Origin: Synergistaceae bacterium
GTDB taxonomy: Bacteria > Synergistota > Synergistia > Synergistales > Aminobacteriaceae
Assembly: GCA_031280275.1 (NCBI GenBank)
Contig: JAITGX010000049.1
Span: 4,168 to 68,167 of the forward strand
Length of the DNA stretch: 64,000 bases
Direction: 5' to 3'
The notes below the pieces were generated by a model. The model did not search any database. It had not been told where the DNA came from and was given only the letters and a program-made list of their open reading frames with translations. Both the position numbers and the translations under genes were made by a program. Shown one piece after another: positions 1-47,923 of the stretch (positions are counted from its first letter, which is position 1; every line of letters begins with the position of its first letter).

Positions 1-1
1 A

Positions 2-910
2 GAAATAGTTTTCAGCGACTCCGATCCGGCGGTCAACGAAAAGTACATGGCGGGTGCAGCGGTGCTTATCACCAGCACGAGGGGCATTTCACCCGACATG
101 CTCGCGAAAGCCGTAAATTGCCGTTATATACAAAAATACGGCAGCGGAACCAACAACATCGCCGTCAAGGAAGCGAGCGCCCGAAAAATCCCCGTGGGGG
201 CCGCAGTGGGGGGAAACGCCCGTTCTGTGGCGGAATACGCGCTGGCCATGGCTCTGGCCGTATACAAACACCTGATACAGAGCCATAACGCTTTAAGGCA
301 GGAAGGCCGTTGGCTTAGAACGCTGCTGTGCGACCAGAATTACGAACTCAGCGGGAAAAAAGTCGGCATCGTCGGTTTTGGCAGCATTGGAAAAACCCTG
401 CGGCGCTTGCTGCGCGGTTTCGACTGTGACGTGAGTTACAACGACGCGCAACGCCTTTCCGCGGCAGAGGAGAGCGTTCAAGAAGTCGTCTATATGGAAC
501 TCGACGACATCATGCGGAGCTGCGATTTGGTGTCCCTGCACTGCCCGCTTCTGCCGGAGACAAGGGGCATGATTGACGCGCGCCGCATCGGCCTGATGAA
601 ACCAACCAGCGTGTTGATCAACTGCGCCCGCGGCGGGGTAGTCAATGAAACGGCGCTCTATGACGCGCTGAAGGAACGCAGGATACTCGGCGCCGCTGTG
701 GACAACTACGAGACAGAACCAATAGGAAAGGATCACCCTTTTACTGGGCTCGACAACGTTCTTTTGAGCCCGCACAACGCTGGAGGCACTGTCGAAAGCA
801 TGGAGGCGATTGCGGCGCGCGCGGCCAAGAACATCAATTCCATTTTGGCCAGCGGGATAACCGCCTGCCCGGAGGATTTGGTCAACCGCGCGGATTTAGG
901 GAAGCACTGA
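2..910 (+). CDS. D-isomer-specific 2-hydroxyacid dehydrogenase family protein (5' end runs off the window)
   Basis: Frame is open from the window edge. NAD-binding GIVGFGSIGKTLRRLL (GxGxxG), plus CARGGVV and SPHNAG regions typical of the family. The last codons and the TGA stop lie inside repeat copy 1. Confidence 0.8.
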   Translation, partial: EIVFSDSDPAVNEKYMAGAAVLITSTRGISPDMLAKAVNCRYIQKYGSGTNNIAVKEASARKIPVGAAVGGNARSVAEYALAMALAVYKHLIQSHNALRQEGRWLRTLLCDQNYELSGKKVGIVGFGSIGKTLRRLLRGFDCDVSYNDAQRLSAAEESVQEVVYMELDDIMRSCDLVSLHCPLLPETRGMIDARRIGLMKPTSVLINCARGGVVNETALYDALKERRILGAAVDNYETEPIGKDHPFTGLDNVLLSPHNAGGTVESMEAIAARAAKNINSILASGITACPEDLVNRADLGKH

Positions 911-998
911 TTAATGGGGTTCTTAGGGGCCTGAGGCCCCTAAGCGGGGGGTGGGGCAGGGCCCCATAAAGGACTTGCTCAGCTTAATCCGTGTTTCC
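897..998 (+). repeat. Nested-palindrome MITE/REP-like element, copy 1 (forward, right half degenerate)
   Basis: tagggaagcactgattaatggggttcttaggggcctgaggcccctaagcgggg..gtggggcagggcccca...cttaatccgtgtttcc. Matches the family consensus. Confidence 0.85.
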
Positions 999-1024
999 GC
1001 AGCATGGTATGACGAGGTGCCATT

Positions 1025-2647
1025 ATGGAAAAAAAACTAAAGATATTCTTATCACTGATTTTAACGTTATTGTCGCTGCTCTTGATATCGGGGGCCTTAT
1101 GGCTCCAACCCGAAGCTGGGGCGCTCCTTGACAAAGACCAAGACTATCTGAGCACTCTTGCGCTAAAAATCGAAAAGATACCCCAGGAACGCAGGAAAAA
1201 GGCCATGCTGCTGCGCCTTGGGCTGGAGGGACCCCTGACGCCAGGCGGCAGCGCCTTTCACACCAAGCTGCTGAAGCTCGCGGGCGGCGTGCCGGGGGTT
1301 TTTGGCGGCGCTGACAACGGCCTCGCGCCAGTGACCTCAGAACAGTGGCGCAAGTTCGCCCCTGACTTCGTCTACACGGTTTCCTCAGAGTACAGCGCGG
1401 TGCAAAAACTTATGGAGCGGCCGGAGTGGCGCGGCGTTCCCGCCGTGAAAAACGGCCGGATCGTGCCCTTCGCCGACGAGCTGGTATCCCAGGCCTCTGA
1501 GTATGCAGGGTATTTTGCCTCCTGGCTGGCCTCGGAGATGTATCCGGACGAGTTCGCCGACGAGAAAAATTTAGTTCACCCCATGAAGATAACGGGAGAA
1601 CGTCCCCTTTCCATCGACGTTCCCTACGTGCGGCAGGCGCGAATTGTAGAGAGCGTCATCATGGACTTTACCCACAAAACGCTGCTGGTGGACTTTGAGA
1701 GGCCTCAGCGGATCATCTCCACCAACTCGGGGCAGCTGGACGGCGTCATGACCGTGGGCAACTCCTACTCGCCGCCTCAAACCTGGAGCATCTACCACAA
1801 ACTGGGCTTCGAGCGCTCCCAGTCGGATTTGCTTCAAACGCTCGGTCTCGACGAGACCGTGTCCAGCGTCATGGTTACAGGCGCAGACATGGACAATGCG
1901 GCAGTGAAGACCGCGTCTTACCGGGACATGACCGTCACGGCCGTCGTCACCGCCGGCGTGGAGTCCAACGCGCTCAGAACGTCGAAGGACACGGGCGCTT
2001 GGTATGAGCCGGGCACCATCAACATTCTGGTCATGACCAATCACCGGCTGACCGACCGGGCGCTGGCGCGGGCGATCGTCACCATAACGGAGGCCAAAAC
2101 CGCCGCCCTGTGGGACATGGATATCAGGAGCGCGCAGACCCGAGCGGAAAACCCTGCCACCGGGACGGGCACGGACACGGTCGTCGTGGTGTCTGGGGAA
2201 GGCGTCCCTCTGAATGGGTCGGGAGGTCACGCGAAAATGGGAGAGCTGATAGCCGGTGCGGTACACCAAGCCGTGCGGGAGGCGCTGCTCAAGCAGAACG
2301 GGAAAGCCCCAAGGCGCGGTGTCGCCGAAAGGCTGAGGGAACGGGGGATTTACGCTGCTCACATGCCGCCCGACTGCGCGCCGCAGATGGAAGCTTTGCT
2401 GCTGTCGCCAGACTCCACCGCGCGGGGCTTCATGGAGGCGGCCTTCAGCGTCAGCGACGCCTTTGTCATGGGGCAGGTTTCCGACCTGCGTTCCTTCAAC
2501 GCCTGGGCTTTGGCGGTGGCGTCGGAGACGGCGGGACGGCCTGTCGAAAAGCTGGAGGACCTCTTTAACGGAACCAGGGTACCGGAGGTCTTGGACACGG
2601 CACTGGACGCTCTTTTGACCGGCATAAAAAAGAGGGATAAACCATGA
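1025..2647 (+). CDS. Signal-anchored fusion protein: periplasmic-binding-protein-like segment + CbiZ (adenosylcobinamide amidohydrolase) domain
   Basis: N-terminal hydrophobic segment KIFLSLILTLLSLLLISGALWL. A BtuF/FecB-like stretch follows (FAPDFVYTVSS...WRGVPAVKNGRIVPF). CbiZ-type motifs: VVTAGVESNA, GTINILVMTN, ITEAKTAALWD, ATGTGTDTVVVV. ATGA overlap with the next gene. Confidence 0.65.
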   Translation: MEKKLKIFLSLILTLLSLLLISGALWLQPEAGALLDKDQDYLSTLALKIEKIPQERRKKAMLLRLGLEGPLTPGGSAFHTKLLKLAGGVPGVFGGADNGLAPVTSEQWRKFAPDFVYTVSSEYSAVQKLMERPEWRGVPAVKNGRIVPFADELVSQASEYAGYFASWLASEMYPDEFADEKNLVHPMKITGERPLSIDVPYVRQARIVESVIMDFTHKTLLVDFERPQRIISTNSGQLDGVMTVGNSYSPPQTWSIYHKLGFERSQSDLLQTLGLDETVSSVMVTGADMDNAAVKTASYRDMTVTAVVTAGVESNALRTSKDTGAWYEPGTINILVMTNHRLTDRALARAIVTITEAKTAALWDMDIRSAQTRAENPATGTGTDTVVVVSGEGVPLNGSGGHAKMGELIAGAVHQAVREALLKQNGKAPRRGVAERLRERGIYAAHMPPDCAPQMEALLLSPDSTARGFMEAAFSVSDAFVMGQVSDLRSFNAWALAVASETAGRPVEKLEDLFNGTRVPEVLDTALDALLTGIKKRDKP

Positions 2648-5600
2648 GACGCTCTCTCGGCTTGTTTTTTGTCTTGTTTCTTTTCTTTCTTTTCGCGGGC
2701 GCGGCCTCCGGGGGGATAAAGGGCAGCGCGGCCCTCATCGTGATTGACGCGGACAGCTACGTCGTTCAGCGCGCGGTATCGAACTTGACGTTGCCGGAGG
2801 GCTTCACCGCTCGCGCGTTCTGCATGTCCGACCTGGCGTCAGACGAGGCGGCGCGCTTTTTGAAGGACAGCTCCGTTATCGTGGTGGATGTGATGGATAA
2901 CGCGCTGTCGAGATATATCATTGACAACGGCCTGCTGGACGGCAGAAAAGTCCTGGCCCTGCGCGGCTCGCAGGACGACGTGTCCCTCAAGGCGAAGGGG
3001 TTTTTGTTCGACGAGGAAATTTCCTCATACTACACGTATCTCAGGGCGGACAACGTTCAAAACATGCTGAAACGCGCCCTCGTCCTGGCCACGGGCGCGG
3101 AGATAGCCTATGAGTCCGTGAAGACAACACCCGATGACGGGCTTTACCATCCAGAAGCCGGGGCAGACAGGGTTTTTGCCTCGGCAGAGGACTACCTGGA
3201 CTGGTACAGGAGCGCTCCGAACCGGCCTTGGCTGGGTCTCATGTTTTTCTCCACGTCCCTGGCGGACGGACAGCGGGAAGCGTTCGACGACCTTATCAGG
3301 AAACTGGAGCGGGGCGGCTTTAACGTCCTGCCGGCTTTCGGAAAGGACCAGACGATCATCGAGTCTTACTTTATAGACGGGGCCGGGAAGCGGAGGGTTG
3401 ACGCCGTGCTCTCTTTCTCGCTGAAATTTTACATGTCCCTGAACGAGGGCCTCGCTCAAGGCATCGCCAGCCTGGACGTCCCCATATTCAACGCTGTTAA
3501 CATGTATTCAGCCACCGTTGACGAGTGGCGGGAGAGCAAGGCCGGTATTCCAGCGCTGGACGTGATATGGACAATGGCTACCCCAGAAATATCCGGCGTC
3601 ATTGAGCCGACGCCGTTGATGGGCAAGATAAAAGAAAGAGGTGCAAACGGCGGAACGGTCTATCGATACGAGCTGATTCCCGGAATGATCGAGAGGCTCG
3701 TTCCCCGCATCCACAACTGGATAAAGCTCCGCAAAACGCCCAACGCGGAGAAGAAGATCGCCATACTTTACTACAACAACAGCCAGGGCAAGCAGAACAT
3801 AGGGGCAAGCTACCTGAACGTGTTTCGCAGCCTGGAAGAGATCCTGGACGGGATGAAGCGCGCCGGATACGGCGTCCCCTCTGACCTGAAGCTGGACGAG
3901 GAAGAGATAAAGGGGCTCGTGCTGAGGGGAGGCCGCAACATCGGCTCCTGGGCACCCGGCGAGCTGGACGCGCTTGTGGAATCCGCGCAGGTCGTGAAGC
4001 TGCCGCTGTCCCGTTACAGAGAATGGCTCGCGGAGCTGCCTGAGGACTTCAGGGCGCGCGTTGCCGAGCAGTACGGCGACCCTGCGGCCAGCGGTCTCAT
4101 GATAAAGGACGGAAACATCATCATCCCGATGGTGAAGGCCGGCAACGTCATCCTGCTGCCTGAACCGGCCCGCGGAGCCGCGGACGACCCGATGAAGCTC
4201 TACCATGACCCCCTGCTCTACCCCCCTCACCAGTACCTGGCCGCGTACCTCTGGCTCGAAAAGGAATTTGGCGCCGACGCCATGGTTCACCTGGGCACCC
4301 ACGCCACCTACGAGTGGATGCCAGGGAAACAAGCGGGGCTGTCCCTTTCCTGCCCGCCTGAAGTGCTGATCACGAGCATCCCCAACGTCTACCCCTACAT
4401 CGTGGACGACGTGGGGGAGGGGATTCAGGCGAAACGCAGGGGGAGGGGTGTGGTGATCGACCACCTGACCCCGGCCCTGACCGTGGCGGATGGCTACGGC
4501 GAGTACGCCGAGCTGAGCGGGTTTTGCGCCGATTACCGGCAGGCGGAGTCGATGGGCGCGGCCACGGCTGAGTTCTACCTCGAAAAAATCCGCGCCGCGG
4601 CGGCGGCGTTGGGACTGAACAAAGACCTCGGCCTCGGGGAGATCACCAGCGCGGACGTGCCGGCCATCGCGCAATACCTGGAGTACCTCGACGGCGTTTA
4701 CGTCCCCTACGGGCTTCACACCTTCGGGCGCTCCCCGGACAGCGAACAAAGGGAACTGACCGTGGGCGCGATCCTGGGGCAGAACCCGGATTTGACCTCC
4801 GAAGCCGTGGCGGACAAGCTCGAACGATCTGGGCCGGAGGAGACGAGTCGCTTCCTCCGGGCGCTGGAAGGCCGCTACGTTCCGCCCGCCGAGGGCAACG
4901 ACCCGGTGCGCAATCCCGCGGCCATTCCCACCGGGAGGAACTTTTACGGCCTGTCCCCAAACCGCCTGCCCACCCCGGAAGCGTGGATGCTGGGCCAGAA
5001 GGCGGCCAAGGAAATCGTGGAAAAGTACATCGAGGAGAAGGGCGTTTATCCTGACAAGGCAGCCGTAGTGCTCTGGGCCGTGGAGTCGCTTCGGAACGAG
5101 GGACTGAACGAGTCCGCGATACTGTCGCTGATAGGCGTGGAGCCGGTGTGGGGTCCCACGGGCATCGTGACCGGGACGCGCCCGACACCGGCGGCGCGGC
5201 TGGGGCGGCCTCGCGTGGACGTGGCAGTGGACGTGTCCGGCCTGTACCGCGACCTGTTTCCCGATAAGGTGCTGTTCATCGACGCCGCCATCCGGCAGGC
5301 CGCCGTTCAAGACGACATCGAGAACTTCATCCGCCGCAACGACCAGCGGATAAAGGAGAAACTGATTGAAGCCGGAATGAGCGAGAAGGACGCGGGACGT
5401 TTTTCCAAGGCGCGCGTCTTCTCGGAGGCGCCAGGGGCTTATGGCAACCGGGTGGAGGAACTGGTGTCGGCCTCCGGGCTGTGGGAGGACGAATCCGCCG
5501 TGGCGGAGGTGTTCCGCAGGCATACGGGCTACGCCTACAGCGGGGACTTCTGGGGCGCTCCGGCTGAGTCGGCTTTGGCCGAAAACCTGCGGGACGCGAA

Positions 5601-6516
5601 GGTGGCGTGGCATTCGGTCTCGTCGCAGTACTACGGATTGATGGACAACGACGACATGTTCATGTACCTGGGCGGGCTGTCGATGGCGATACGCGGCCTG
5701 TCCGGCGCGCCGCCCCGGACGATGATCGCCGATCAGCGGACGCTGGGCGGCGTCAAGATGGAGGAGCTGTCGAAGTTCCTGGGGGCCGAAATGCGTTCAC
5801 GCTACCTGAACCCCAAATGGATAGAGGGGATGAAGGCCGAGAACTACGCAGGAGCGCGGGAGATGTCCAACTACGTGGAGTATCTCTGGGGCTGGCAGGT
5901 GACGACGCCGAATGACGTGGATGAGTCGGCTTGGGAACAGACGTACCAGGTATACGTGGAGGATAAGTACGGGATGGACATAAAGAACTTCATGGACGAG
6001 AACAACCCCTGGGCGTATCAGTCGCTGACAGGGCGTATGCTGGAAACCGTGCGGAAAGGCTATTGGAACGCCAGCGAGGAGGTACGGAGAAAGCTGGCAG
6101 TGGAGTACGCCGTCAGCGTGGTGAACCGAGGCCTCGCCTGCTGCGATCACACCTGCAACAACCCGCAGTTTCACCAAATGGTGATGAACCTCATCTCAAT
6201 ACCCGGTCTGATGTCGCCGGAGATGGCGGCCGAGTTCAAGCTGGCAGTGGAAAAGGCCGGACAAAAGACGCTGGAGGAAATGACGCAGACGCGCGAAAAC
6301 CTGCTGAAAAACCTGGGTGAATCAAGGCCGTCGCAAACACCGCAGTCTGGCCTGGAGGCGGATTCTTCTTCCCAGAGCGTGAAGGGCTTCAAAATGGAGA
6401 ACGTTGAAAACGCGGAGACCTCGGCGCCGTCCTCTGGGGTGGAGTGGTTCGCATCGCTGTTCGTTCTGGCGTTCTTGGCGCTGTTCTGCATCGGTTTGAG
6501 GCGCGGAAAGAAATGA
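2644..6516 (+). CDS. CobN/Mg-chelatase-H family protein with N-terminal signal-like segment and C-terminal membrane anchor
   Basis: 1290 aa. CobN-type motifs recognised by eye: HLGTHATYEWMPGK, GIQAKRRGRGVVIDHLTP, NPAAIPTGRNFY. N-terminus MRRSLGLFFVLFLFFLFAGAASG. C-terminus WFASLFVLAFLALFCIGLRRGKK. Confidence 0.85.
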   Translation: MRRSLGLFFVLFLFFLFAGAASGGIKGSAALIVIDADSYVVQRAVSNLTLPEGFTARAFCMSDLASDEAARFLKDSSVIVVDVMDNALSRYIIDNGLLDGRKVLALRGSQDDVSLKAKGFLFDEEISSYYTYLRADNVQNMLKRALVLATGAEIAYESVKTTPDDGLYHPEAGADRVFASAEDYLDWYRSAPNRPWLGLMFFSTSLADGQREAFDDLIRKLERGGFNVLPAFGKDQTIIESYFIDGAGKRRVDAVLSFSLKFYMSLNEGLAQGIASLDVPIFNAVNMYSATVDEWRESKAGIPALDVIWTMATPEISGVIEPTPLMGKIKERGANGGTVYRYELIPGMIERLVPRIHNWIKLRKTPNAEKKIAILYYNNSQGKQNIGASYLNVFRSLEEILDGMKRAGYGVPSDLKLDEEEIKGLVLRGGRNIGSWAPGELDALVESAQVVKLPLSRYREWLAELPEDFRARVAEQYGDPAASGLMIKDGNIIIPMVKAGNVILLPEPARGAADDPMKLYHDPLLYPPHQYLAAYLWLEKEFGADAMVHLGTHATYEWMPGKQAGLSLSCPPEVLITSIPNVYPYIVDDVGEGIQAKRRGRGVVIDHLTPALTVADGYGEYAELSGFCADYRQAESMGAATAEFYLEKIRAAAAALGLNKDLGLGEITSADVPAIAQYLEYLDGVYVPYGLHTFGRSPDSEQRELTVGAILGQNPDLTSEAVADKLERSGPEETSRFLRALEGRYVPPAEGNDPVRNPAAIPTGRNFYGLSPNRLPTPEAWMLGQKAAKEIVEKYIEEKGVYPDKAAVVLWAVESLRNEGLNESAILSLIGVEPVWGPTGIVTGTRPTPAARLGRPRVDVAVDVSGLYRDLFPDKVLFIDAAIRQAAVQDDIENFIRRNDQRIKEKLIEAGMSEKDAGRFSKARVFSEAPGAYGNRVEELVSASGLWEDESAVAEVFRRHTGYAYSGDFWGAPAESALAENLRDAKVAWHSVSSQYYGLMDNDDMFMYLGGLSMAIRGLSGAPPRTMIADQRTLGGVKMEELSKFLGAEMRSRYLNPKWIEGMKAENYAGAREMSNYVEYLWGWQVTTPNDVDESAWEQTYQVYVEDKYGMDIKNFMDENNPWAYQSLTGRMLETVRKGYWNASEEVRRKLAVEYAVSVVNRGLACCDHTCNNPQFHQMVMNLISIPGLMSPEMAAEFKLAVEKAGQKTLEEMTQTRENLLKNLGESRPSQTPQSGLEADSSSQSVKGFKMENVENAETSAPSSGVEWFASLFVLAFLALFCIGLRRGKK

Positions 6517-7142
6517 CGACGTTTTTGGAGTACATGGACGCGGGCGGGTGGGTCATGTGGGTGATCCTGGCGCTGTCGGTTGCGTCAGCGGCTTTCGTCA
6601 TCGAGCGGGTGATTTTTTTCGCCGTGTCCAGGACGGACGCCGATGCCCTAGAACGGGCTTTCGTCCAGTCTCTGGAGAGCGGAAACATCGGGGAGGCCAA
6701 GGCGGCAACGTTTGGGCGCGGCTCCCTGAACAGACTGTATCAGTCGGCCTACGGTTGTTGGGACCTAGAGGACAAGGACATGAAGGTGATGCTTGAAGGG
6801 GAGGCGAGAGGGGAGATTTTTAAATGGGAGAGCAACCTTTCTTTCCTGGAGATCACCGCGAAGATTTCGCCTTTGCTGGGACTGCTGGGGACGGTGCTGG
6901 GCATGGTGGAGATGTTCCACACTTTGAATATAGGCGAGTCCGTGAACTCCGCCGCCGTGACGGGAGGCATTCGCAAGGCGCTCTTCACCACCGCAGCCGG
7001 GCTGACAGTGGCTATTCCGGCGATCATGGCCCATGGACTGCTGTTGCGTTGCGTGGCTCGCGCGGAGGAAACGCTGACTCGGGGGATCGACTTTATCATG
7101 AAAAAACGGTTCGAGCGGAAGGCGGCGTCGTGTTCTAAATGA
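6513..7142 (+). CDS. exbB: MotA/TolQ/ExbB family proton-channel protein
   Basis: In-frame ATG at 6513 overlaps the upstream stop (ATGA). Three hydrophobic segments. C-terminal LLGLLGTVLGMVEMF...GGIRKALFTTAAGLTVAIPA is typical of ExbB/TolQ. Confidence 0.85.
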   Translation: MTTFLEYMDAGGWVMWVILALSVASAAFVIERVIFFAVSRTDADALERAFVQSLESGNIGEAKAATFGRGSLNRLYQSAYGCWDLEDKDMKVMLEGEARGEIFKWESNLSFLEITAKISPLLGLLGTVLGMVEMFHTLNIGESVNSAAVTGGIRKALFTTAAGLTVAIPAIMAHGLLLRCVARAEETLTRGIDFIMKKRFERKAASCSK

Positions 7143-7531
7143 GACGCGCGCCCAGGCGGGGGGTTGACGTGGACATAACGCCTCTCATCGACGTCCTCTT
7201 TATGCTCATCATCTTCTTCGTCCTCACCACCGTGTTCGTCCAAGGCGCCATAACCATCGACCTGCCTCAGGGGAGCGCCTCTCCGGTATCCGAGAACAGC
7301 TCCATCGTTGTAACCGTGACAGCGGGCTCCGAAATACTGTGGGCCGGGGAAGCGGTGTCCCACGACGACCTGCCGGCGTTGGTGGCGGACGTTCTTGCCC
7401 GCAGCGGCGACATCCTGCTGGCTGGCGACAGGAAAGCACCTTACGGAGAGGTGGCCAGGGTTCTTAACAGCCTTCGCGCCTTGGGCGTCGGAAGCGTGGG
7501 TTTGGCCTTCGAGGGGGGCGGGGATAAATGA
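7139..7531 (+). CDS. exbD: ExbD/TolR family biopolymer transport protein
   Basis: 130 aa. DITPLIDVLFMLIIFFV N-terminal TM motif and a periplasmic domain. ATGA overlaps on both sides. Confidence 0.85.
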   Translation: MRRAPRRGVDVDITPLIDVLFMLIIFFVLTTVFVQGAITIDLPQGSASPVSENSSIVVTVTAGSEILWAGEAVSHDDLPALVADVLARSGDILLAGDRKAPYGEVARVLNSLRALGVGSVGLAFEGGGDK

Positions 7532-8253
7532 ACCGCGCCGCCGCTTCTCTTTTGCTCAGTGTTTTCCTGCACGCGGGACTGCTCTGGGTCTTTGCTCCGG
7601 TCTTTTCCGAAGGGAAACGAGAGGAAACAAACGCCGTCATAAGAGTGGTCTTTAATGGGAACGCCAGGGAAGCGCACAAGGCCGGCAAGGCCGAACCGGA
7701 GAAATTCGAACCGGAGAAACCCGCTGTCCCAGTTCCTGTTCCGCCTGCGGCAAAGCCGGAGCCAAAACCCAAGCCCCAACCTAAGTCAAGACCCAAAACT
7801 TCCCCTAAACCCCGTCAAAGTCCGACCAAGAAGAGTCGAGAAAACACCGTTCCAACTGCGGCGGAGAGGGAGGATGGCCCTTCTCAAGTCGGAGGCTCAC
7901 CCCACGGAGGCTTGCCTCATGGAGGCTCGCCTCACGGAGATATGCCTCGACAACTGAGTTCGACTGAAACGCGGCGGTCCACGTCGGTTATCGACGCGGA
8001 AAAGCTGAAAGTGACTCGAAGAATAAAGCCGGATTACCCGATGATAAGTCGAAAACGTAAAGAACAGGGTACCGTTGTTCTTTTGATAGACGTTATCGCC
8101 GGACAGGTGACGTCGGTGAGGCTGGAGCGCGGCAGCGGGTACCCCGCCCTCGATGAATCAGCGGCCAAGGCGGCACGTGGGTGGCGGTTCGAAACATCGG
8201 GGCACGGAGATAAAATCGTGGCACGGATTACCTTTAGGTTCGAGCTGAAGTGA
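7528..8253 (+). CDS. tonB: TonB family energy transducer
   Basis: N-terminal TM (LLLSVFLHAGLLWVFAPVF). Pro/Lys-rich linker (PEKPAVPVPVPPAAKPEPKPKPQPK). C-terminal TonB_C-like KPDYPMISRKRKEQGTVVLLIDV...GYPALDESAAKAARGWRF. Confidence 0.8.
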   Translation: MNRAAASLLLSVFLHAGLLWVFAPVFSEGKREETNAVIRVVFNGNAREAHKAGKAEPEKFEPEKPAVPVPVPPAAKPEPKPKPQPKSRPKTSPKPRQSPTKKSRENTVPTAAEREDGPSQVGGSPHGGLPHGGSPHGDMPRQLSSTETRRSTSVIDAEKLKVTRRIKPDYPMISRKRKEQGTVVLLIDVIAGQVTSVRLERGSGYPALDESAAKAARGWRFETSGHGDKIVARITFRFELK

Positions 8254-8336
8254 GAGCGTTTTTGGGAAGCGGAGCGGAAACACTAACCCTTCGGGCATGT
8301 GACAGCAATTTTACAGTCCCTCCCGTTGGCCGGGTA

Positions 8337-8431
8337 TAGAAAGCCCTGATTAATGAGCTGCTTAGGGGCCCAAGGTCCCTAAGCAGGGCGTGGAGTTCCA
8401 GCCCCACAAGGGGTTAATCAGCGTTTCCTTA
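8337..8431 (+). repeat. Nested-palindrome MITE/REP-like element, copy 2 (forward)
   Basis: tagaaagccctgattaatgagctgcttaggggcccaaggtccctaagcagggcgtggagttccagccccacaaggggttaatcagcgtttcctta. Confidence 0.9.
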
Positions 8432-8468
8432 ATAAAAAAGATAGGAGAGAAGAAAAATGACTCAACAA

Positions 8469-8518
8469 CCTGAGTGACTGATACAATTTCATTACATTAG
8501 CGAGTGAAATTATAAATA
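8469..8518 (+). repeat. 50-nt motif, copy A (inverted partner at 35320-35369)
   Basis: cctgagtgactgatacaatttcattacattagcgagtgaaattataaata. 47/50 identical to the reverse complement of 35320-35369. Confidence 0.85.
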
Positions 8519-9008
8519 AGACCTTGAAAAAGAAAAAATACGTTTCAAAAACTGATATCCTCTAGTTTAAAGGTTAGCTGCACCAAAACTGGAGGTTTCA
8601 ATCATTCAAAACGATTTCTCCGTCTTCGTAGGGATGGCTGCTGGTGTTCTCGTTTCTCAAAGCCTGCCGCTTCCCATGTGGAATTGCCGTCTTCCTTTTG
8701 GTGTCCAGGCCGCGGGCACGGAACGGCGCTTCAGTCAATGGCTTCACAACAGGCTGATAAATCCTCACAGCCTCTATGAAAAATTCTTCCGGTATGTCCT
8801 TCGAGGGCGGACACAGCATCCCTTACTGCTCGTCCTGGAACACCCGAGTTCTTCCGTCACCTTTGCCCGGTACGAAGAACTTCTGAAAACAGGCTCAACG
8901 CCTTCTCCCTCAGGACGTTACTGTTGTTTTCCCTGCCGGCAGAGGCTTTGTAAACCGTAAGCTCATGCGTACTCTTTCTTCTTTTGGCTGGGAATGGCGC
9001 ATTCGGAT

Positions 9009-9104
9009 TAAGGAAGTGCTGATTAACCCTCTCGCGGGGCTCTGCCCCACACCCCGCTTAGGGGCTTCAGGCCCCTAAGAACCCCTTTAATTAGCGTTTC
9101 CGTA
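9009..9104 (-). repeat. Nested-palindrome MITE/REP-like element, copy 3 (reverse)
   Basis: taaggaagtgctgattaaccctctcgcggggctctgccccacaccccgcttaggggcttcaggcccctaagaacccctttaattagcgtttccgta. Confidence 0.9.
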
Positions 9105-9186
9105 ATGATTTTCCCGAATACAACGCGTTGATCGTTAAGAACTGCAAAATTGACGAAATGTCAAACTTTTTCTTTTATCTCACTCA

Positions 9187-11832
9187 TTACAGCCCCCGCG
9201 TGAACTCCAAAAACTTGTCAAAATGAGTCGCGCCGTTTATTTTCAAATCTTTGTTCTCAAACACCATGTAATACCGGTACGCCGGGCCGGCTTTGTTCGC
9301 CCACACGCTGCCGACTTCCGCTTTTTTGGCGGATTCCGAGTTTTCGAGGTGGTCGCCCTTCGGCTCAATCATCAGAATATGTCCTCCCGTCGTCATGGCG
9401 ATAATGTCGGGGTAGGCGTTCACGTATCCGTTGATGTTGAAGCCTATTCTCGACATATTCCTGTGCCACCACTTGATATTCGGCATGTTGTCCAGCTCCC
9501 ACGCGACGCGCGTCTCCAGTTTATTCATTTCTTCTTCAGCTTTGTAAAGCGTCTTGGTATAAGACGACGTATATTTCGCCGGGGATATTTCGCTTTTCAA
9601 CCCGTAAGTCGGGACGCATTTGATCTTCTCATGTTCGATCCACGTCTTGAACACTTTTTCCGAGTGGACGGACATCAGCGTTTCTATTTTGCGCCTGATT
9701 TTTTCGCAGTAGCGATAAGGAGATTCTTTCAAATCCTCAAGCTGTTCCTGGTTAAGGCCGCTTAAAACACGCCCCACGTATTCGGACAGCTCCGCGTGGT
9801 CCAGCGCGTCCATTTTGTCGAGTTTCTCCAATATCATTCTTTTACAAGCCCCAATGCGTCCTTCCGGCTCAATGGACTTCAAATACTGTTTGAAAACTTC
9901 TTTCTCCTTTTCCGTAAGCCTCCATGCTTTGGGAGAATCGTCTTCATTCTTTACATCGATGACAGCAATTTCAGAATCCACCGCCGAAAAATCTATCTTC
10001 GTATCTTCGGTTCTGAGAGAAAAACCCTCCGTCAAATCAATGGGCTTGAGCAAAGCCGTCCCGGACTTCTCAAACAAATTCGGAGTGGAATCTATCACAA
10101 ATTGGGGCAGCAGCAAGACGCGCGCTGCCTCAACAAATTCGCTCTTCATCGGAAATGTTTTCATATAGCCCCTCTCTTCCGGCGCGATCGCGCTTCCCTC
10201 AGACCGCCCCGCGTCTTCCGCGCTTTTGGCGTATTCTTCGCCCCGCTTTATCGTGTTGGCTATGAATTTTTCATCGAGTTTAGCCGTTGGTTGGTCTTCG
10301 CTTCCTTCCACGCTCACGTCTGTTTTATCGTTCAGGCGTTCCCTGACAATTTTGGCGTCAGCTTCGTTTTCGTCAGGCGCTGGAGTTTCGTGGCCGTCCA
10401 GCGGCAAATTCCCCTGTCTTGGTTCCTCCGGCCTCGAATCTTCGATTTCCTCGGCGCGATAGTCCCGCTCGCTCATTCCGGCGTTGTTGAGACCCGTGAT
10501 GACACGCCGCAAGGTCTCCTGAAAAGCATTCGACGACGTGAACACATACGACATGTTGAGCATTTCGTTTGTGTTTTTCGTGACGTGCGGAAGGCGCAGA
10601 ATACGCCCTAAAATCTGTTCCACGTCCACAATCGAACTGCGGTTCGCGACAGTGGCCAATATATACGCGAAGGGGCAATCCCAACCTTCTTTCAAGGCGT
10701 TGACCGTGATGATATATCGAATCGGGCAGCGGGGGCTCAAAAGATCGACGCCTTTAAGCTCGTTTCTGTTGGAGGTTTTGACGGCGATTTGGTCTTCGGG
10801 TATGCCGATGTCAAGAAGCGTGCGTTTTGCCTTCTCAAAAGTTTCGCTGTCCTCGTTGTTTTTGGACTGGGCTTGGAAAAGGACGATAGGACGTATATAC
10901 CGCCCCGATTGTTTCTTCTCCCGCTTCGCCTCGGCTTCGAGATGACCGCGAAGTTTTATTGCGTCGGTAAAAACGTCCGTCTGAGATTTATGGTTGTAGA
11001 CGATGACCGGCAATTTGACCATATTCTCCCGTTTGAGGCGGAGGGCGCTCACAAAAGAAATGATGTTGCTTCCCATTTTAGGCGTGGCCGTCAGATTGAG
11101 AACGAAGCTCGGATTAAAGTTTTTGAGCATGTCCACGCTCAACGGCGTTACCGCGTGATGGCTCTCGTCCGCGATGACGACGGGTTCGAGGTATCGGATC
11201 GCCTGAATGAGCGCGGTTTCGTCCGCTCCTTCGAGAAGAATTTTTTCGCCGTCCCTGTCCTCGAAGGCTTTAGCAAACGGAGCGAGGCTGCCGTTTTCCT
11301 GATAGGCTTTGCGCCCTTCCTTTTTATTCGTCCGGAATGAGTCGTAAGAAAGAACGAAGATCGAGAGCTGTTCGCTTACGGCGACCGGGCCGAAATTTTG
11401 GCCGGATAGCAGCTGCCCTTTGGAATAAACTTCGACGCGGCCCGAGAAATCCGCGTCGATCCTCTGTCTGTAAGGGTGAGAAGCGTTCGACAGGTTTTTC
11501 AGCGTCTGCTCCAAAATGGAGTCCGAAGGCACAAGCCACGCGACGGCCTTGTTCTTTATGTACTTCGTTTCGCCGATGGAGTCGAATATGACTTTTATCG
11601 CGCTGGCGGCGATGAACGTTTTGCCGCCGCCCGTAGGCACTTTGAGGCAAACGTCGGGTACGTTTGGAATGGAGTGTTTGTAACTCTCCATGCCGCCGCT
11701 AACCCCAACGTTTACGCCGCGCTCTTCCCAAAAAATTCTGAACGCTTTTGAAATATCTCCCGTCTGCCGCAGAAGAGCGAGGAAACGGCTCAGACTGCCG
11801 ATAACGTCTCTCTGAAATCGCTTGAGTTCCAT
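9187..11832 (-). CDS. res: Type III restriction endonuclease, Res (helicase-nuclease) subunit
   Basis: 881 aa. SF2 helicase motifs: VPTGGGKTFIAA (motif I), ADESHH (II), LTATP (III), QILGRILR (VI). Lies downstream of a beta-class Mod methylase in an AT-richer island. Confidence 0.9.
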   Translation of the reverse strand: MELKRFQRDVIGSLSRFLALLRQTGDISKAFRIFWEERGVNVGVSGGMESYKHSIPNVPDVCLKVPTGGGKTFIAASAIKVIFDSIGETKYIKNKAVAWLVPSDSILEQTLKNLSNASHPYRQRIDADFSGRVEVYSKGQLLSGQNFGPVAVSEQLSIFVLSYDSFRTNKKEGRKAYQENGSLAPFAKAFEDRDGEKILLEGADETALIQAIRYLEPVVIADESHHAVTPLSVDMLKNFNPSFVLNLTATPKMGSNIISFVSALRLKRENMVKLPVIVYNHKSQTDVFTDAIKLRGHLEAEAKREKKQSGRYIRPIVLFQAQSKNNEDSETFEKAKRTLLDIGIPEDQIAVKTSNRNELKGVDLLSPRCPIRYIITVNALKEGWDCPFAYILATVANRSSIVDVEQILGRILRLPHVTKNTNEMLNMSYVFTSSNAFQETLRRVITGLNNAGMSERDYRAEEIEDSRPEEPRQGNLPLDGHETPAPDENEADAKIVRERLNDKTDVSVEGSEDQPTAKLDEKFIANTIKRGEEYAKSAEDAGRSEGSAIAPEERGYMKTFPMKSEFVEAARVLLLPQFVIDSTPNLFEKSGTALLKPIDLTEGFSLRTEDTKIDFSAVDSEIAVIDVKNEDDSPKAWRLTEKEKEVFKQYLKSIEPEGRIGACKRMILEKLDKMDALDHAELSEYVGRVLSGLNQEQLEDLKESPYRYCEKIRRKIETLMSVHSEKVFKTWIEHEKIKCVPTYGLKSEISPAKYTSSYTKTLYKAEEEMNKLETRVAWELDNMPNIKWWHRNMSRIGFNINGYVNAYPDIIAMTTGGHILMIEPKGDHLENSESAKKAEVGSVWANKAGPAYRYYMVFENKDLKINGATHFDKFLEFTRGL

Positions 11833-11896
11833 CGTTCGCCCCTAATAACGGAGTTCCCGCCAAAAAAATATGACAGCCTATCCGTGTCGAGAAATA

Positions 11897-12121
11897 TCAT
11901 ACCTTTTCTCTCCCCAACGTGAAACTTTCCCGTTCCGCAATGACCTGTCCAACGTTTGTTACGTCTTCGCCGTTCCATGTATTGAAATAATCGAAAATAT
12001 TCTCCTGTGGTCTCTTCACGGGATCGACGAACGTGATGACCACTTTATACTCTTCTTTCACGAGCACGGGTTCCTCCAGCCTGAAACAATTTCCGTCGTA
12101 TATTCCCTTTATCGCGTACAC
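11897..12121 (-). CDS. Small protein with an AF2212/DUF104-like antitoxin-type N-terminus
   Basis: 74 aa. MYAIKGIYDGNCFRLEEPVLVKEEYKVVITF fits the (I/V)xG(I/V)Y(D/E)xGxxxxLE...V.I.F pattern of that family. Sits between mod and res on the same strand. Confidence 0.45.
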   Translation of the reverse strand: MYAIKGIYDGNCFRLEEPVLVKEEYKVVITFVDPVKRPQENIFDYFNTWNGEDVTNVGQVIAERESFTLGREKV

Positions 12122-12148
12122 GCCGCACCTCCTTTCTTGGCGTCCCTC

Positions 12149-13732
12149 CTACAGCCGCGCGATGTCGCGCGGTATTTTCTTGAAAACGACGCGGAATTTT
12201 TCCAAATCTTCCGGAGAAATTTGGCATTTATCGGCGTATACGACGCGGCCCTCGGCCTGACGGTTCAAGGTTCCAAGAAACGCCCTGTCGAGCGTCGTTA
12301 TCCGGTCGCGCTCGTAGTAAAAATAGTAGTCCGTGTCCGCGTTCTCTCCAATATAATAGGGACTTTCCGATTTATCGGCGAGTTTCGGCAATGTCTTTCT
12401 CGTCTCCATGTAAAAGACGTACTCGCGTATGCACTCCACGGGTATATTTTCGTTGAGGCAGCCACTTTCGAGAAGAAGCGGCTCACCCAGTTCATAAAAA
12501 CTGAAGCTCCCGCCCGTCCCCTTTACGTCCCCGTACCCGTCGATGACGCGCCGGACGCGCTCGGCGGTGATGGTCTCCGCGTAGTCTTCCATCTCCACGA
12601 GGATGAATTTGCGGTTTCCCCTGTCCTGTTTGTTCAGGTTCAAAACGGCGTGGGCCGTGGTGCCCGAACCGGCGAAGGAGTCAAGAACAATCAAATTTTC
12701 CGGAGGAAATAATTGCAAAATTTTATTGATAAACTTCGTTGGTTTCGGTGTTTTAAACACCTCAGAGCTATGAAATTTTGGGAAAACTTTCAACAATTCG
12801 TATTTCGCGTTTCTGTTATGCCCTGTATCTTCGACATCCCACCAAATATTTGATGGAACAATTCCTAATTGGTCCTTTAAAAAAGTCTTTTTAATGATAC
12901 GCGCTTGATTGCCGGGAAAAATAACTGTGCCATCTGCAATCCAAGCAGACATTTTCTCTTGACTCCAACGCCATCCATTCTTAGGAGCTTTGATAACGGT
13001 TCCATCTGGTGAGATAACGTCGTATTGCAAATTGGCTCGATAATTAGGCGATTGCAGATTGCTCTGAAACCACTGCCCTCTTGGGTCATTATCTGGGTTT
13101 TTGTAGTGCTGATTGTTTTCTTCTCTTCTGGCAAAACGTAAAGGTTGCCAACCACGTGTTTTTGAGTATACAAGCGTATGATTGTAGTCACCAGAAAACT
13201 GTTTGGAATCATTGTTAGAAGAATCTGCTGAACGCCAGATCAAATCGGTCACAAAACTGTTAATCCCAAATACTTCGTCACAAATCAACTTTAAATTCGC
13301 TTGCTCATTATCATCAATACTGATAAAAATAGCCCCGTCGTCGGACAGGAGCTTTTGCAGCAGCTTCAGCCTCGGGTACATCATACAGAGCCATTTGTCG
13401 TGACGGCTCAGGTCTTCGCCCTCTTTGCCCACAACCTCGCCAAGCCATTTTTTGATTTTCGGGTCGTTCACATTGTCGTTGTAGACCCAGCCCTCGTTGC
13501 CGGTGTTGTAGGGCGGGTCGATGTAGACGCACTTGATTTTTCCCTCGTATCGCGGCAAAAGAGACTTCAGCGCCGCCAGGTTGTCACCTTTGATGATTTT
13601 GTTTCCGTCCAGCTGTTCATTGCCTGCAGCGCCGCCGTCTATATAGGTATACTTGTGCTCCAGGACGCGGTAGGGCACGTCCTGGTGGTGGTTGGTCACT
13701 TTGTCTTTGCCAATCCAAGAGAGCGTCGGCAC
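12149..13732 (-). CDS. mod: Type III R-M Mod subunit, DNA (N6-adenine or N4-cytosine) methyltransferase
   Basis: 527 aa. DPPYNTG (motif IV) precedes VLDSFAGSGTTAHAV (motif I), the beta-class order. GTG start preceded by gggagg. Confidence 0.9.
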   Translation of the reverse strand: MPTLSWIGKDKVTNHHQDVPYRVLEHKYTYIDGGAAGNEQLDGNKIIKGDNLAALKSLLPRYEGKIKCVYIDPPYNTGNEGWVYNDNVNDPKIKKWLGEVVGKEGEDLSRHDKWLCMMYPRLKLLQKLLSDDGAIFISIDDNEQANLKLICDEVFGINSFVTDLIWRSADSSNNDSKQFSGDYNHTLVYSKTRGWQPLRFARREENNQHYKNPDNDPRGQWFQSNLQSPNYRANLQYDVISPDGTVIKAPKNGWRWSQEKMSAWIADGTVIFPGNQARIIKKTFLKDQLGIVPSNIWWDVEDTGHNRNAKYELLKVFPKFHSSEVFKTPKPTKFINKILQLFPPENLIVLDSFAGSGTTAHAVLNLNKQDRGNRKFILVEMEDYAETITAERVRRVIDGYGDVKGTGGSFSFYELGEPLLLESGCLNENIPVECIREYVFYMETRKTLPKLADKSESPYYIGENADTDYYFYYERDRITTLDRAFLGTLNRQAEGRVVYADKCQISPEDLEKFRVVFKKIPRDIARL

Positions 13733-14143
13733 CTGCGCTGTTCCTCCCGCGTTCGTTTCGCTTATCGCCTAAGGCTTGTTTTAAAACTAATCACTCCAAC
13801 AAAAAACCGCCGTTTTTAGGCGCTTTTTTGAACGCATTTATAGTCACTCAACTTTCGCGGCGACTCTTTTGAACGTAAGTTATTGCAATTACATATTTCT
13901 TTGGCGATAAAAAGTTCAAAAGTAGTTAGTGATGTTTAGAGCCTTTAAATTGTGAACGCTTGCAACACTGACGTCAATATTCGCGTGACGACAAAAACAA
14001 CACCAGTGAAGTCAAGGGGTTAGACAGGTTGTTTCCCGTGTTATCCTACGGGGCAGCACCTACGCTGCTTCACACAATGCCCTATCTAGCGCACTTGCTT
14101 TTAGTATAGCGTATAGCTCACCACAAGGGATTTTAGACACGCT

Positions 14144-14173
14144 CTAAGACCCCCATTAATCAGTGCTTCCCTA
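14144..14173 (-). repeat. Half copy (one end only) of the MITE/REP-like element
   Basis: ctaagacccccattaatcagtgcttcccta. 24/30 identical to the end of copy 3 (9075-9104), in the same orientation. Confidence 0.7.
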
Positions 14174-14182
14174 AAATTTCTT

Positions 14183-25927: not shown

Positions 25928-26065
25928 GAAAGCGCTGATTAATGAGAAAGCACTGATTAATGGGGTTCTTAGGAGTCTGAGGCCCCTTGGGGTCTGAGAC
26001 CCCTTGGGTCTGAGACCCCTAAGCGGGGTGTGGGGCAGAGCCCCACAAGGGCCAGCGTTTCCTTA
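25925..26065 (+). repeat. MITE/REP-like element, copy 4 (forward, expanded)
   Basis: Duplicated left TIR (taagaaagcgctgattaatg / agaaagcactgattaatgg). Internal tandem ccttgggtctgagacc duplication. Right TIR lacks ttaat. Confidence 0.85.
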
Positions 26066-27412: not shown

Positions 27413-27521
27413 AGGGAAGCGCTGATTAAGCCCTTGCGGGGCTCTGCCCCAGGCCCCGCTTAGGGGTCTTGGACCGAGGCCTTGGGCTCCTTAAAGAACT
27501 CCATTAATCAGTACCTCCTTA
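27412..27521 (-). repeat. MITE/REP-like element, copy 5 (reverse, divergent hairpin-1 region)
   Basis: tagggaagcgctgattaagcccttgcggggctctgcccca...cttaggggtcttggaccgaggccttgggctcc...ccattaatcagtacctcctta. Confidence 0.8.
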
Positions 27522-34035: not shown

Positions 34036-34146
34036 TAAGGAAGCGCTGATTTAAGGAAACGCTGATTAAGCCCTTGCGGGGCTCTGCCCCACGCCCTGCT
34101 TAGGGGCCTGAGGCCCCTAAGAACCCCATTAATCAGTGCTTCTTTA
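34036..34146 (-). repeat. MITE/REP-like element, copy 6 (reverse, duplicated TIR)
   Basis: taaggaagcgctgatt + taaggaaacgctgattaagcccttgcggggctctgccccacgccctgcttaggggcctgaggcccctaagaaccccattaatcagtgcttcttta. Confidence 0.9.
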
Positions 34147-34290
34147 ACTCCCCCAGCCCTATACAGAAATCCCAAGCTATGTGGCATAATATAACAAACC
34201 AACAATGGGATAGATAAAAATGCTAAATCGCCATGAGAGCAGTGACGAAAACTGGGAACGCGTCAAATCTCTTCGGCTTGCAGCAGAGCA

Positions 34291-35247: not shown

Positions 35248-35319
35248 TAAAGGAAGCGCTGATTAATGGGGTTCTTAGGGGCTCTTGAACCCCTAAGCGG
35301 GGCGTGGGGCGGAGCCCCA
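35248..35319 (+). repeat. MITE/REP-like element, copy 7 (forward, right TIR missing)
   Basis: taaaggaagcgctgattaatggggttcttaggggctcttgaacccctaagcggggcgtggggcggagcccca, then abuts the 50-nt motif. Confidence 0.85.
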
Positions 35320-35369
35320 TATTTATAATTTCACTTGCTAGTGTAATGAAATTGTGTCAGTCACTCAGG
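35320..35369 (-). repeat. 50-nt motif, copy B (inverted partner of 8469-8518)
   Basis: tatttataatttcacttgctagtgtaatgaaattgtgtcagtcactcagg. There are 3 transition differences from the reverse complement of copy A. Confidence 0.85.
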
Positions 35370-37488: not shown

Positions 37489-37528
37489 ATTGAGGAAAAA
37501 TCCGCAAATTAAGGAGAAATCCGCGCCC

Positions 37529-39028: not shown

Positions 39029-39140
39029 GGAAGCGCTGATTAATGGGGTTCTTAGGAGTCTGAGCCCCCTTGGGGTCAATACCCCGCCTAATGCCCCTAA
39101 GCGGGGCGTGGAGCGGAGCCCCACAAGGGCTTAATCAGCT
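39026..39140 (+). repeat. MITE/REP-like element, copy 8 (forward, expanded hairpin-1 region)
   Basis: taaggaagcgctgattaatggggttcttaggagtctgagcccccttggggtcaataccccgcctaatgcccctaagcggggcgtggagcggagccccacaagggcttaatcag. Confidence 0.85.
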
Positions 39141-47918: not shown

Positions 47919-47923
47919 AAAGT

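Follow-up and report, generated by a model that had tools for sequence, protein, structure and literature searches.

The stretch of DNA analysed here, called the window below, comprises 64,000 nucleotides (nt) of a Synergistaceae bacterium (GenBank assembly GCA_031280275.1, contig JAITGX010000049.1, positions 4,168 to 68,167 of the forward strand). At 1025-8253 it carries a block of five plus-strand genes, in which a CobN-like protein of 1290 amino acids (aa) is encoded between an exported BtuF-CbiZ fusion protein and an ExbB-ExbD-TonB trio. These genes and their stop/start overlaps had been described before from the letters alone (hereafter the sequence-only reading), and both coordinates and overlaps proved exact. 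The features of the block and its flanks are as follows.

1-910, plus strand: D-2-hydroxyacid dehydrogenase gene, of which the window edge leaves only the 3′ part (Pfam 2-Hacid_dh_C, 8e-56; the ATG at 47 is internal).
896-983, no strand: intergenic repeat with hairpins, resembling repetitive extragenic palindromes or miniature inverted-repeat transposable elements (REP/MITE-like; repeat families D1-D4 and D6; at least 10 copies in the window).
1025-2647, plus strand: exported fusion of a BtuF-like domain (C-lobe) and CbiZ (Pfam CbiZ, 4.7e-50; Peripla_BP_2, 1.3e-6).
2644-6516, plus strand: 1290-aa CobN-like, ‘BtuS’-type protein (Pfam CobN-Mg_chel, E = 0, 1041 bits).
6513-7142, plus strand: ExbB/TolQ-family proton channel (Pfam MotA_ExbB, 1e-26; three transmembrane (TM) segments at residues 10-39, 114-132 and 160-178).
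7139-7531, plus strand: ExbD/TolR-family protein with one TM segment and a conserved Asp (PLIDVLF; Pfam ExbD, 9e-23).
7528-8253, plus strand: TonB (Pfam TonB_C, 5e-14; TIGR01352, 3e-15).
8335-8422, no strand: second REP/MITE-like copy, forming a strong hairpin after tonB (minimum free energy −44.4 kcal/mol, z = −4.9 vs shuffled controls, with 8335-8430 as the folded segment).

Profile hidden Markov model searches, one of the checks proposed with the sequence-only reading, matched CbiZ, CobN-Mg_chel, MotA_ExbB, ExbD and TonB_C in Pfam. The ATGA stop/start overlaps lie exactly at 2644, 6513, 7139 and 7528, with a Shine-Dalgarno-like GAGG or GGAGG ahead of each start, and a set of four is what tight operons usually show; the overlaps are not kept in relatives, and in a Synergistaceae locus of 67% identity (L004) a gap of ~150 nt separates the CobN-like gene from exbB. 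The start of ExbB was set at ATG 6513, not GTG 6444, in agreement with the N-termini of its homologues. A promoter scan gave promoter-like sites in numbers comparable to those of shuffled controls, and a terminator scan returned 16 terminator-like sites against 9.2 expected, located inside genes and none of them at the operon borders; the repeat at 8335-8422 likely marks the end of the transcription unit. In NCBIfam, neither ExbB nor ExbD reaches the equivalog cut-offs, and TolQ/TolR models rank first. Residue D18 of ExbD is invariant in the family alignment, and TonB combines an N-terminal TM segment bearing an S-x3-H motif, the only hydrophobic stretch by hydropathy, with a Pro/Lys-rich spacer and a TonB C-terminal domain. 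The trio is a complete, canonical TonB system. The Kdo transferase KdtA is encoded in the window as well, which points to an outer membrane bearing lipopolysaccharide and thus to a diderm envelope.

Hydropathy analysis of the CobN-like protein gave only two hydrophobic segments, at residues 1-27 and 1263-1288, the second being followed by RRGKK. The C-terminal anchor has the consensus SSSGVEWFASLFVL..LF..G.RR, in which W1268 and G1284 are invariant; a strict hydropathy cut was passed by 94 of the 116 homologues, and anchor and basic tail are conserved family-wide. Furthermore, three database proteins of ~1950 aa fuse BtuF-like, CbiZ and CobN-like parts, and since one of them (P0010, 1948 aa) is hydrophobic only at both ends (4-27, signal; 1921-1945, anchor), CbiZ and the CobN body should share one compartment. 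From hydropathy, the fusion proteins and homology, the chelatase body is therefore predicted to be extracytoplasmic and tethered to the inner membrane by a C-terminal TM helix, as the sequence-only reading had proposed from the signal-like N-terminus and the hydrophobic helix with its basic tail.

By its PF02514 match the protein belongs to the class I chelatases; it carries the superfamily motif HFG(T/A)HG, with its catalytic His, in the form HLGTHA, with H549 and H553 invariant. All NCBIfam equivalogs for CobN/BchH remained below their cut-offs (NF004645, 915.6 vs 1619; NF004644, 818 vs 1248; TIGR02257, 611 vs 822). Residues H553, E592 and D1003 align gap-free to the Co2+ ligands of canonical CobN (H554, E593 and D1100 in PDB 9uk9 numbering; bioRxiv 10.64898/2026.07.21.739949) and are invariant in the family, as are the HxGTH and DNDD motifs. 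The best PDB match was HmuS (2e-142), with 479 bits vs 435 and 430 for two CobN structures and 385 for ChlH, while identities, computed over the N-terminal 690 alignment columns, were 24-27% to HmuS and 28-29% to canonical CobN. In a midpoint-rooted neighbour-joining tree, the window protein fell into a clade apart from HmuS and clustered with the CobN-like proteins of plasmid pSZ77 and Runella; the use of this tree to place the clade nearer HmuS or CobN was set aside as too crude, and motifs and architecture were used instead. On these, the protein is classified as an exported, BtuS-type member within the superfamily of class I chelatases that is neither HmuS nor canonical CobN, the BtuS type being recognised by a predicted periplasmic, membrane-anchored CobN homologue (here from hydropathy, the positive-inside tail and the fusion protein). 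An invariant CCDHxCNNP (residues 1166-1174, nt ~6139-6165) lies in the C-terminal extension common with HmuS, which has SCSGFVCDN there, and could be a periplasmic metal-binding or disulfide site.

The first gene of the block encodes a signal-like N-terminus (residues 3-29), which recurs in 32 of 37 members of the BtuF-CbiZ family, and a complete CbiZ domain (residues 224-417, PF01955 profile positions 2-191 of 191). Its score for the NCBIfam CbiS equivalog was 73.6 vs a cut-off of 250. The match to Peripla_BP_2 covers only profile positions 126-229 of 235; relative to L004 and another related locus, L023, the BtuF-like domain (window 1025-1640) lacks the N-lobe, ~125 residues, and is likewise short in the Synergistaceae contig L002. 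Characterised CbiZ enzymes are cytoplasmic salvage enzymes, and a periplasmic CbiZ is therefore unusual.

An iterated profile search of all stop-to-stop open reading frames (ORFs) found no TonB-dependent receptor, DUF2162 or DUF2149 in the 64 kb. The sequence-only reading had likewise reported the receptor as missing, which is correct for the window, although the absence is to be read as an edge effect. L002 is colinear with the window at ~91% nucleotide identity over window 2-6573 (window 2-902 corresponds to L002 4130-5028, at 90% identity, and window 1015-6573 to L002 5211-10743). Upstream of its dehydrogenase gene, which begins 42 nt past DUF2149, L002 encodes a receptor (452-2503), DUF2162 (2512-3231), MotA/ExbB (3307-3666) and DUF2149 (3702-4004), a set of 3.7 kb that would precede window position 1. 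From this colinearity, the end of DUF2149 is expected ~125 nt before window position 1, and the receptor most likely lies just outside the window. L004 has the entire set in a single run, ordered receptor, cobalamin riboswitch (2918-3123, directly before DUF2162), DUF2162, MotA, DUF2149, BtuF-CbiZ, CobN-like protein, ExbB, ExbD and TonB. The proteins closest to those of the window (91-93% identity) come from Synergistaceae metagenome-assembled genomes.

The dehydrogenase gene (window 1-910, L002 4046-5030) is found between DUF2149 and BtuF-CbiZ in this lineage only, and a homologue occurs near the paralogous locus L008. HmuS needs NADH for its activity, but the dehydrogenase is predicted to be cytoplasmic and the link may be coincidental; it was treated as a passenger gene inside the locus and as a synteny anchor to L002. 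L008 itself, in the metagenome-assembled genome closest to the window (Pc512_bin126), is a second riboswitch-headed CobN-like locus, which has no MotA triad.

Relatives' loci were collected by a genome scan with one genome per species, which gave 529 loci with a relative of the window protein; the best 79 were kept and stem from Synergistota, Desulfobacterota, Planctomycetota and other phyla. For labelling, all stop-to-stop ORFs were translated and searched with iterated profiles, for which the window and a Pfam-annotated contig supplied the seeds, and riboswitches were counted with a profile built on Rfam-validated hits. The neighbourhood survey comprised 77 species-level loci, with counts restricted to those having at least 6 kb upstream (n = 52) or at least 4 kb downstream (n = 38). 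With sufficient upstream flank, the triad DUF2162-MotA-DUF2149 was present in 46/52 loci, a TonB-dependent receptor in 39/52, a plus-strand cobalamin riboswitch in 32/52 and an adjacent BtuF-CbiZ gene in 25/52 (36/77 overall), vs 10/52 for ExbB-ExbD. With sufficient downstream flank, ExbB-ExbD was found in 12/38 loci and TonB in 13/38. All ExbB-ExbD loci with sufficient flank also carry the triad and a receptor, and among the surveyed relatives exbB stands immediately 3′ of the CobN-like gene only in L004, L041 and L046. Given 46/52 for the triad vs 10/52 for ExbB-ExbD, the MotA/DUF2149 pair, together with DUF2162, emerges as the conserved partner of the CobN-like protein, and the classical TonB trio as an accessory that is optional and goes with the receptor.

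This distribution bears on the proposal of the sequence-only reading that ExbB-ExbD(-TonB) drives the chelatase through its C-terminal helix, the proton motive force replacing the AAA+ motor of ChlI/ChlD or CobS/CobT. The translational coupling of the CobN-like gene and exbB through an ATGA overlap, the position of exbB directly after the CobN-like gene in L004, L041, L046 and pSZ77, the lack of an AAA+ partner at any locus, and a conservation of the C-terminal helix (W1268 and G1284 invariant) beyond the needs of a passive anchor are in line with such a drive. The linkage is nevertheless that of a minority (12/38 loci), always together with TonB, a receptor and the more conserved MotA-type motor (46/52), and the trio bears all marks of an ordinary TonB system. 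Moreover, soluble HmuS without TM helices was active in vitro with NADH (PMC12583661), so that a motor is not intrinsically required in the closest characterised homologue. A direct drive by ExbB-ExbD is thus considered quite unlikely; the trio most likely serves the outer-membrane receptor, and MotA/DUF2149, as the near-universal neighbour of the CobN-like gene, would be the better candidate for a chelatase-coupled motor.

ORFs resembling ChlI or CobS/CobT were found neither in the window nor in 80 related loci. The window does contain one Mg-chelatase-family AAA+ gene (37490-39028; ChlI, Mg_chelatase and Mg_chelatase_C), the only one, whose domain content assigns it to the ComM/YifB architecture and not to a ChlI/ChlD pair; the earlier statement that an AAA+ partner is missing therefore holds for a partner, not for AAA+ genes altogether. 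These results also concern a conventional cytoplasmic cobaltochelatase large subunit of a late-insertion B12 pathway, with unlinked AAA+ partners and irrelevant terminal segments, as would follow from the public annotation ‘cobaltochelatase subunit CobN’ and would suit the conserved cobalt-site residues and the AAA+ gene at 37.5 kb. Such a subunit is highly improbable here: the protein scores far below all NCBIfam CobN/BchH cut-offs (best 916 vs 1619), it keeps the signal-like and anchor segments family-wide, the 37.5-kb gene has the ComM/YifB architecture, none of the 80 loci encodes a CobS/CobT or ChlI/ChlD relative (a partner elsewhere in the genome being possible), the organism has the early-insertion chelatase CbiK, and canonical cobN loci are ordered differently (cobW-cobN-AAA-VWA).

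Several lines strongly suggest, at the level of sequence and gene context, a corrinoid substrate. Rfam confirmed a cobalamin riboswitch in 12/17 related loci tested, and together with the adjacent BtuF-CbiZ genes (36/77) and the triple-domain fusions this substantiates the corrinoid context noted earlier. The receptors have the vitamin B12 receptor family as their best NCBIfam match, well below its cut-off; a cytoplasmic CbiK-like gene follows the CobN-like gene in ~23 loci, and btuCD-like genes (several loci), a cobW-like gene and cbi genes occur near CobN-like loci. In the window itself, the riboswitch-controlled cbiK with signal peptide, placed at 46.6 kb by the sequence-only reading, was recovered with the following coordinates.

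46649-47521, minus strand: CbiK with signal peptide, not part of the locus (Pfam CbiK, 2.5e-71; N-terminus MFKNYFVTVMLVVFFASQAGAAED).
47627-47841, minus strand: cobalamin riboswitch ahead of cbiK (Rfam RF00174, 85.6 bits).

The membrane protein DUF2162 has a conserved His and a PCPxC motif that is invariant; among solved structures, no relative of it was found. Profile-profile comparison detected no homology of DUF2162 to Bacteroides HmuT (probability 2.9%) or to a Runella NicO-like permease (0.3%), nor of DUF2149 to ExbD (1.8%); all three pairs are thus linked by positional analogy only. In an AlphaFold2 model of DUF2149 (mean predicted local distance difference test score 61.8), the TM helix alone was confident, and the model was judged too poor a basis for a fold search. 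In Runella slithyformis plasmid pRUNSL01 (L083, 3584-11618), a hypABFCDE [NiFe]-hydrogenase maturation cluster, i.e. a nickel context, surrounds a receptor, the NicO-like permease, MotA, DUF2149 and an exported CobN-like gene. The NicO-like permease (H-x4-D-H motif) occupies the position of DUF2162 there, and this analogy hints at a metal permease in the DUF2162 slot.

Further arrangements were observed around CobN-like genes. An accessory set recurs beside the gene in L001, L006, L013, L023, L062 and L063, consisting of a 290-aa protein without Pfam match, a membrane polyferredoxin (Fer4_5), an HGD-D family protein and a BcrAD/BadFG-type activase; by analogy with the reductant requirement of HmuS, it could supply low-potential electrons. 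Two to three tandem paralogous CobN-like genes were found per locus in L017, L021, L025, L027, L053, L033, L062 and L080. On plasmid p4 of the alphaproteobacterium Azospirillum brasilense Sp7 (L084, 4809-9540), a ‘cobN’ with signal-like N-terminus and hydrophobic C-terminal segment is followed by MotA, DUF2149 and, in addition, an iron-type ABC transporter, and no receptor adjoins it; exported paralogues of this sort probably underlie many public annotations as ‘cobaltochelatase subunit CobN’. A protein search with the DUF2149 profile gave only Desulfobacterota-like sequences as top hits. For archaea, which have no outer membrane, a pairing of CobN-like genes with MotA/DUF2149 was looked for in the literature as well, where Haloferax CobN pairs with ChlID.

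Taken together, the block at 1025-8253 is considered the distal half of a TonB-dependent corrinoid/cobalt acquisition locus, and the scheme proposed in the following is, as a whole, held to be probable. The full locus would comprise, in this order, a BtuB-like receptor, DUF2162, MotA/ExbB, DUF2149, (the dehydrogenase), BtuF-CbiZ, the CobN-like protein, ExbB, ExbD and TonB, a locus type that in relatives appears to be under cobalamin riboswitch control. The receptor would carry corrinoids into the periplasm, energised by the locus's own ExbB-ExbD-TonB, as the canonical features of the trio and its co-occurrence with receptors suggest. Exported BtuF-CbiZ would bind the corrinoids and, judged by its domains, cut the amide of the aminopropanol/nucleotide loop in the periplasm. 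The CobN-like protein, which its C-terminal helix would keep at the periplasmic side of the inner membrane and which is regarded as a putative sister family of HmuS that retains the cobalt-site residues of true CobN, would then take the trimmed corrin and alter its metalation, by analogy with HmuS most likely by cobalt release; the freed cobalt could be imported for de novo B12 synthesis. A motor acting on the CobN-like protein, if any, would by conservation be the upstream HmuU/HmuV-like MotA/DUF2149 pair and not ExbB-ExbD.

Several points weigh against this scheme. We know of no enzyme that strips cobalt from corrin. The active-site motif MDNDDMFMYLGG is chelatase-like, not HmuS-like, so that the reaction may run in either direction, and loss of the N-lobe may impair corrinoid binding by the product of the first gene. 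The topology of the CobN-like protein rests on hydropathy rules and homology. The window locus itself has neither riboswitch nor receptor, their presence in the genome being deduced from the 91%-identical contig, and no riboswitch was found in the 430 nt upstream of the L002 receptor. In addition, Bacteroides fragilis BtuS1/BtuS2 mutants were affected in heme-iron use, not in B12 (PMC6460266).

Instead of altering metalation, the CobN-like protein might act as a non-catalytic carrier, i.e. an anchored periplasmic receiver or chaperone passing corrinoids from the receptor via CbiZ to BtuCD or DUF2162. In their head/neck domains, class I chelatases are similar to periplasmic binding proteins, and these domains bind a non-substrate tetrapyrrole in HmuS (PMC12583661); in the family studied here, the head/neck site is remodelled yet strictly conserved (M84, K261, F262, Y263, W309), several loci contain btuCD-like genes, and some proteins are fused to a BtuF-like domain. 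A carrier would, however, not be expected to show invariance at the metal site (H553, E592 and D1003) and in the motifs HxGTH and DNDD, and 1300 residues are a large cost for binding that is already offered by the BtuF-like domain, so that this role appears unlikely.

The proposed acquisition scheme can be extended to the doubtful, yet more general view that an exported CobN-like protein and a MotA/DUF2149 proton motor would form a periplasmic machine stripping metals from tetrapyrroles or metal chelates, in versions specific for heme iron (Hmu), nickel (Runella) and cobalt (here), the last with loop removal by CbiZ, subsequent cobalt extraction, import via DUF2162 and handover to CbiK. If this were true, the CobN-like enzyme would be the first corrin dechelatase known and anaerobes would mine unusable B12 analogues for cobalt. 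The role may be to mine B12 analogues for cobalt or to remodel cobamides in the periplasm, and either would bear on the economics of cobalt and B12 in anoxic communities, for instance those of termite guts, sediments and dechlorinating consortia.

The remainder of the window was annotated in the same way. The REP/MITE-like element measures ~90 nt and combines two GC-rich hairpins with inverted CTGATTAAT/ATTAATCAG ends at its termini; there are at least 10 copies, lying in both orientations (896-983, 8335-8422, 9011-9105, 14144-14196, 25945-26050, 27413-27507, 34053-34147, 35248-35335, 39028-39128, 47923-48010 and 57615-57709). The copies at 896-983 and 8335-8422 were considered as borders of a mobile cassette, which was rejected given at least 10 intergenic copies across the window. 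Directly after the locus, an island at 8300-14000 has 47-52% GC vs ~60% elsewhere and contains a type III restriction-modification pair (ResIII helicase, 9187-11832, minus strand; N6/N4 DNA methylase, 12149-13732, minus strand); it was probably acquired horizontally. A pilin-like gene (39904-41058, plus strand), whose product bears a prokaryotic N-terminal methylation motif, is followed by a 229-aa ORF and a 1490-aa ORF (41781-46253), neither of which has a Pfam match. The 1490-aa ORF was considered as a second chelatase and rejected, as it had no Pfam hit and no similarity to CobN; it may be an uncharacterised giant protein associated with pili or secretion. Further genes of the window are a V-type ATPase operon and those for SecDF, TopA, UvrB and CobS.

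Among known systems, the parallel to HmuS drawn in the sequence-only reading was borne out by the literature. The heme dechelatase HmuS of Bacteroides thetaiotaomicron (PDB 9d26; Nath et al., EMBO J 2025) belongs to the hmuYRSTUV operon and is bound to the membrane, with single TM helices at both termini (PMC12583661), and a Bacteroides hmu locus encodes HmuY, a receptor, HmuS, a 233-aa membrane protein, MotA_ExbB (HmuU) and DUF2149 (HmuV), the latter annotation being found for Porphyromonas gingivalis HmuV (PMC10434189). HmuS is the only characterised relative, with dechelatase activity shown in 2025. A protein search with an HmuS fragment returned only truncated or frameshifted HmuS calls, and the comparisons were therefore made with N-terminal halves and PDB alignments. 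In common are the class I chelatase fold, the N- and C-terminal hydrophobic segments, the periplasmic body predicted for the window protein, the lack of an AAA+ partner, a C-terminal extension absent from canonical CobN and, in the relatives' loci, TonB-dependent receptor, MotA/ExbB and DUF2149 as neighbours. The HxG(T/A)H motif and the equivalents of Glu-577, Asp-1208 (D1003) and Met-79 (M84, in 13/13 members) are likewise present.

With HmuS as best PDB match (479 bits vs 435 for CobN), the export, C-terminal extension, anchor and MotA/DUF2149 neighbourhood in common, M84 invariant and an effect of the B. fragilis BtuS proteins on heme-iron use (PMC6460266), the window protein might be taken for a true HmuS orthologue, a periplasmic heme dechelatase harvesting iron whose corrinoid neighbours are incidental. 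This is very unlikely. His-254 is replaced by Tyr-263 (Y/W/A in the family), HGR by Y-[MS]-[SA] and Gln-299 by Trp-309, so that of the site-1 heme ligands of HmuS (Met-79, His-254 of the HGR motif and Gln-299) only the Met is kept; LSLDHxxEFMGG of domain V is replaced by MDNDDMFMYLGG, with His-1209 becoming Asp-1004 and Glu-1212 becoming Met. The HmuS family is defined by a Met-rich insertion in domain IV (mean 82 residues, minimum 22), a complete hmuYRSTUV operon and at least 50% identity to B. thetaiotaomicron HmuS (PMC12583661). The window protein has no Met-rich insertion (HmuS ~736-930 is unmatched in the pairwise alignment; 1290 vs 1469 aa) and 24-27% identity to HmuS over the N-terminal 690 columns, and it belongs to a separate clade; HmuY was found neither in the window nor in the 79 loci. 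Unlike in Hmu, DUF2162 takes the place of HmuT, cobalamin riboswitches replace the iron-regulated context, and periplasmic BtuF-CbiZ and a classical ExbB-ExbD-TonB are added. Riboswitch-linked Hmu-like operons have also been argued to be probably not for heme (Mesle et al. 2023, PMC10100974).

The assignment as an exported BtuS-type protein agrees better with a second group of systems. The name BtuS goes back to Rodionov et al. 2003, as cited in PMC6460266. For B. fragilis BtuS1/BtuS2, a periplasmic location with a membrane anchor is predicted (Rocha et al. 2019, PMC6460266), and Hmu-like operons that lack HmuY and possess a cobalamin riboswitch have been suggested to act on cobalamin (PMC10100974). 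Receptor-containing loci, some of them riboswitch-headed, without HmuY are in common with the loci of the window's relatives, and metalloporphyrin or cobalamin salvage has been proposed as their role. Descriptions of BtuS concern Bacteroidota, and the window protein is likened to BtuS1 by description, not by sequence; the BtuS/Hmu-like literature searched makes no mention of a coupling to BtuF-CbiZ, of DUF2162 or of a spread over Synergistota, Desulfobacterota and Planctomycetota.

Gene order is matched closely by plasmid pSZ77 of Trichlorobacter (Geobacter) lovleyi SZ, for which cobN-exbB-exbD-tonB without CobS/CobT was reported, with a role stated as unknown by the authors (Wagner et al. 2012, PMC3403914). 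In RefSeq, its order is that of L004 (receptor, DUF2162, MotA, DUF2149, CobN, ExbB, ExbD, TonB, receptor), with tandem riboswitches ahead of the first receptor, and the cluster is located between cobalamin biosynthesis clusters. The pSZ77 protein has the signal-like N-terminus, C-terminal anchor and DNDD motif in common; it differs in its identity of only 35-39% to the window protein, in a position at the base of the latter's clade, and in having no BtuF-CbiZ gene beside it. Canonical CobN (CobNST; PDB 9uk9, 7c6o) and ChlH/BchH have superfamily and domain order in common with the window protein, and CobN in addition the Co2+-site residues and the DxDD-x-F/Y-x-Y-x-GG motif, but canonical CobN is cytoplasmic, has neither terminal hydrophobic segments nor the C-terminal extension, and its AAA+/VWA partners are encoded nearby. 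The architecture is therefore already known from HmuS, BtuS, the pSZ77 order and riboswitch-linked Hmu-like operons, and the present result is mainly of corrective value, in that the architecture is not new and a receptor need not be regarded as missing. To these systems, the loci described here add a predicted periplasmic BtuF-CbiZ partner, which is sometimes fused, a CobN-type cobalt site in a putatively exported enzyme, and two proton-motor sets per operon.

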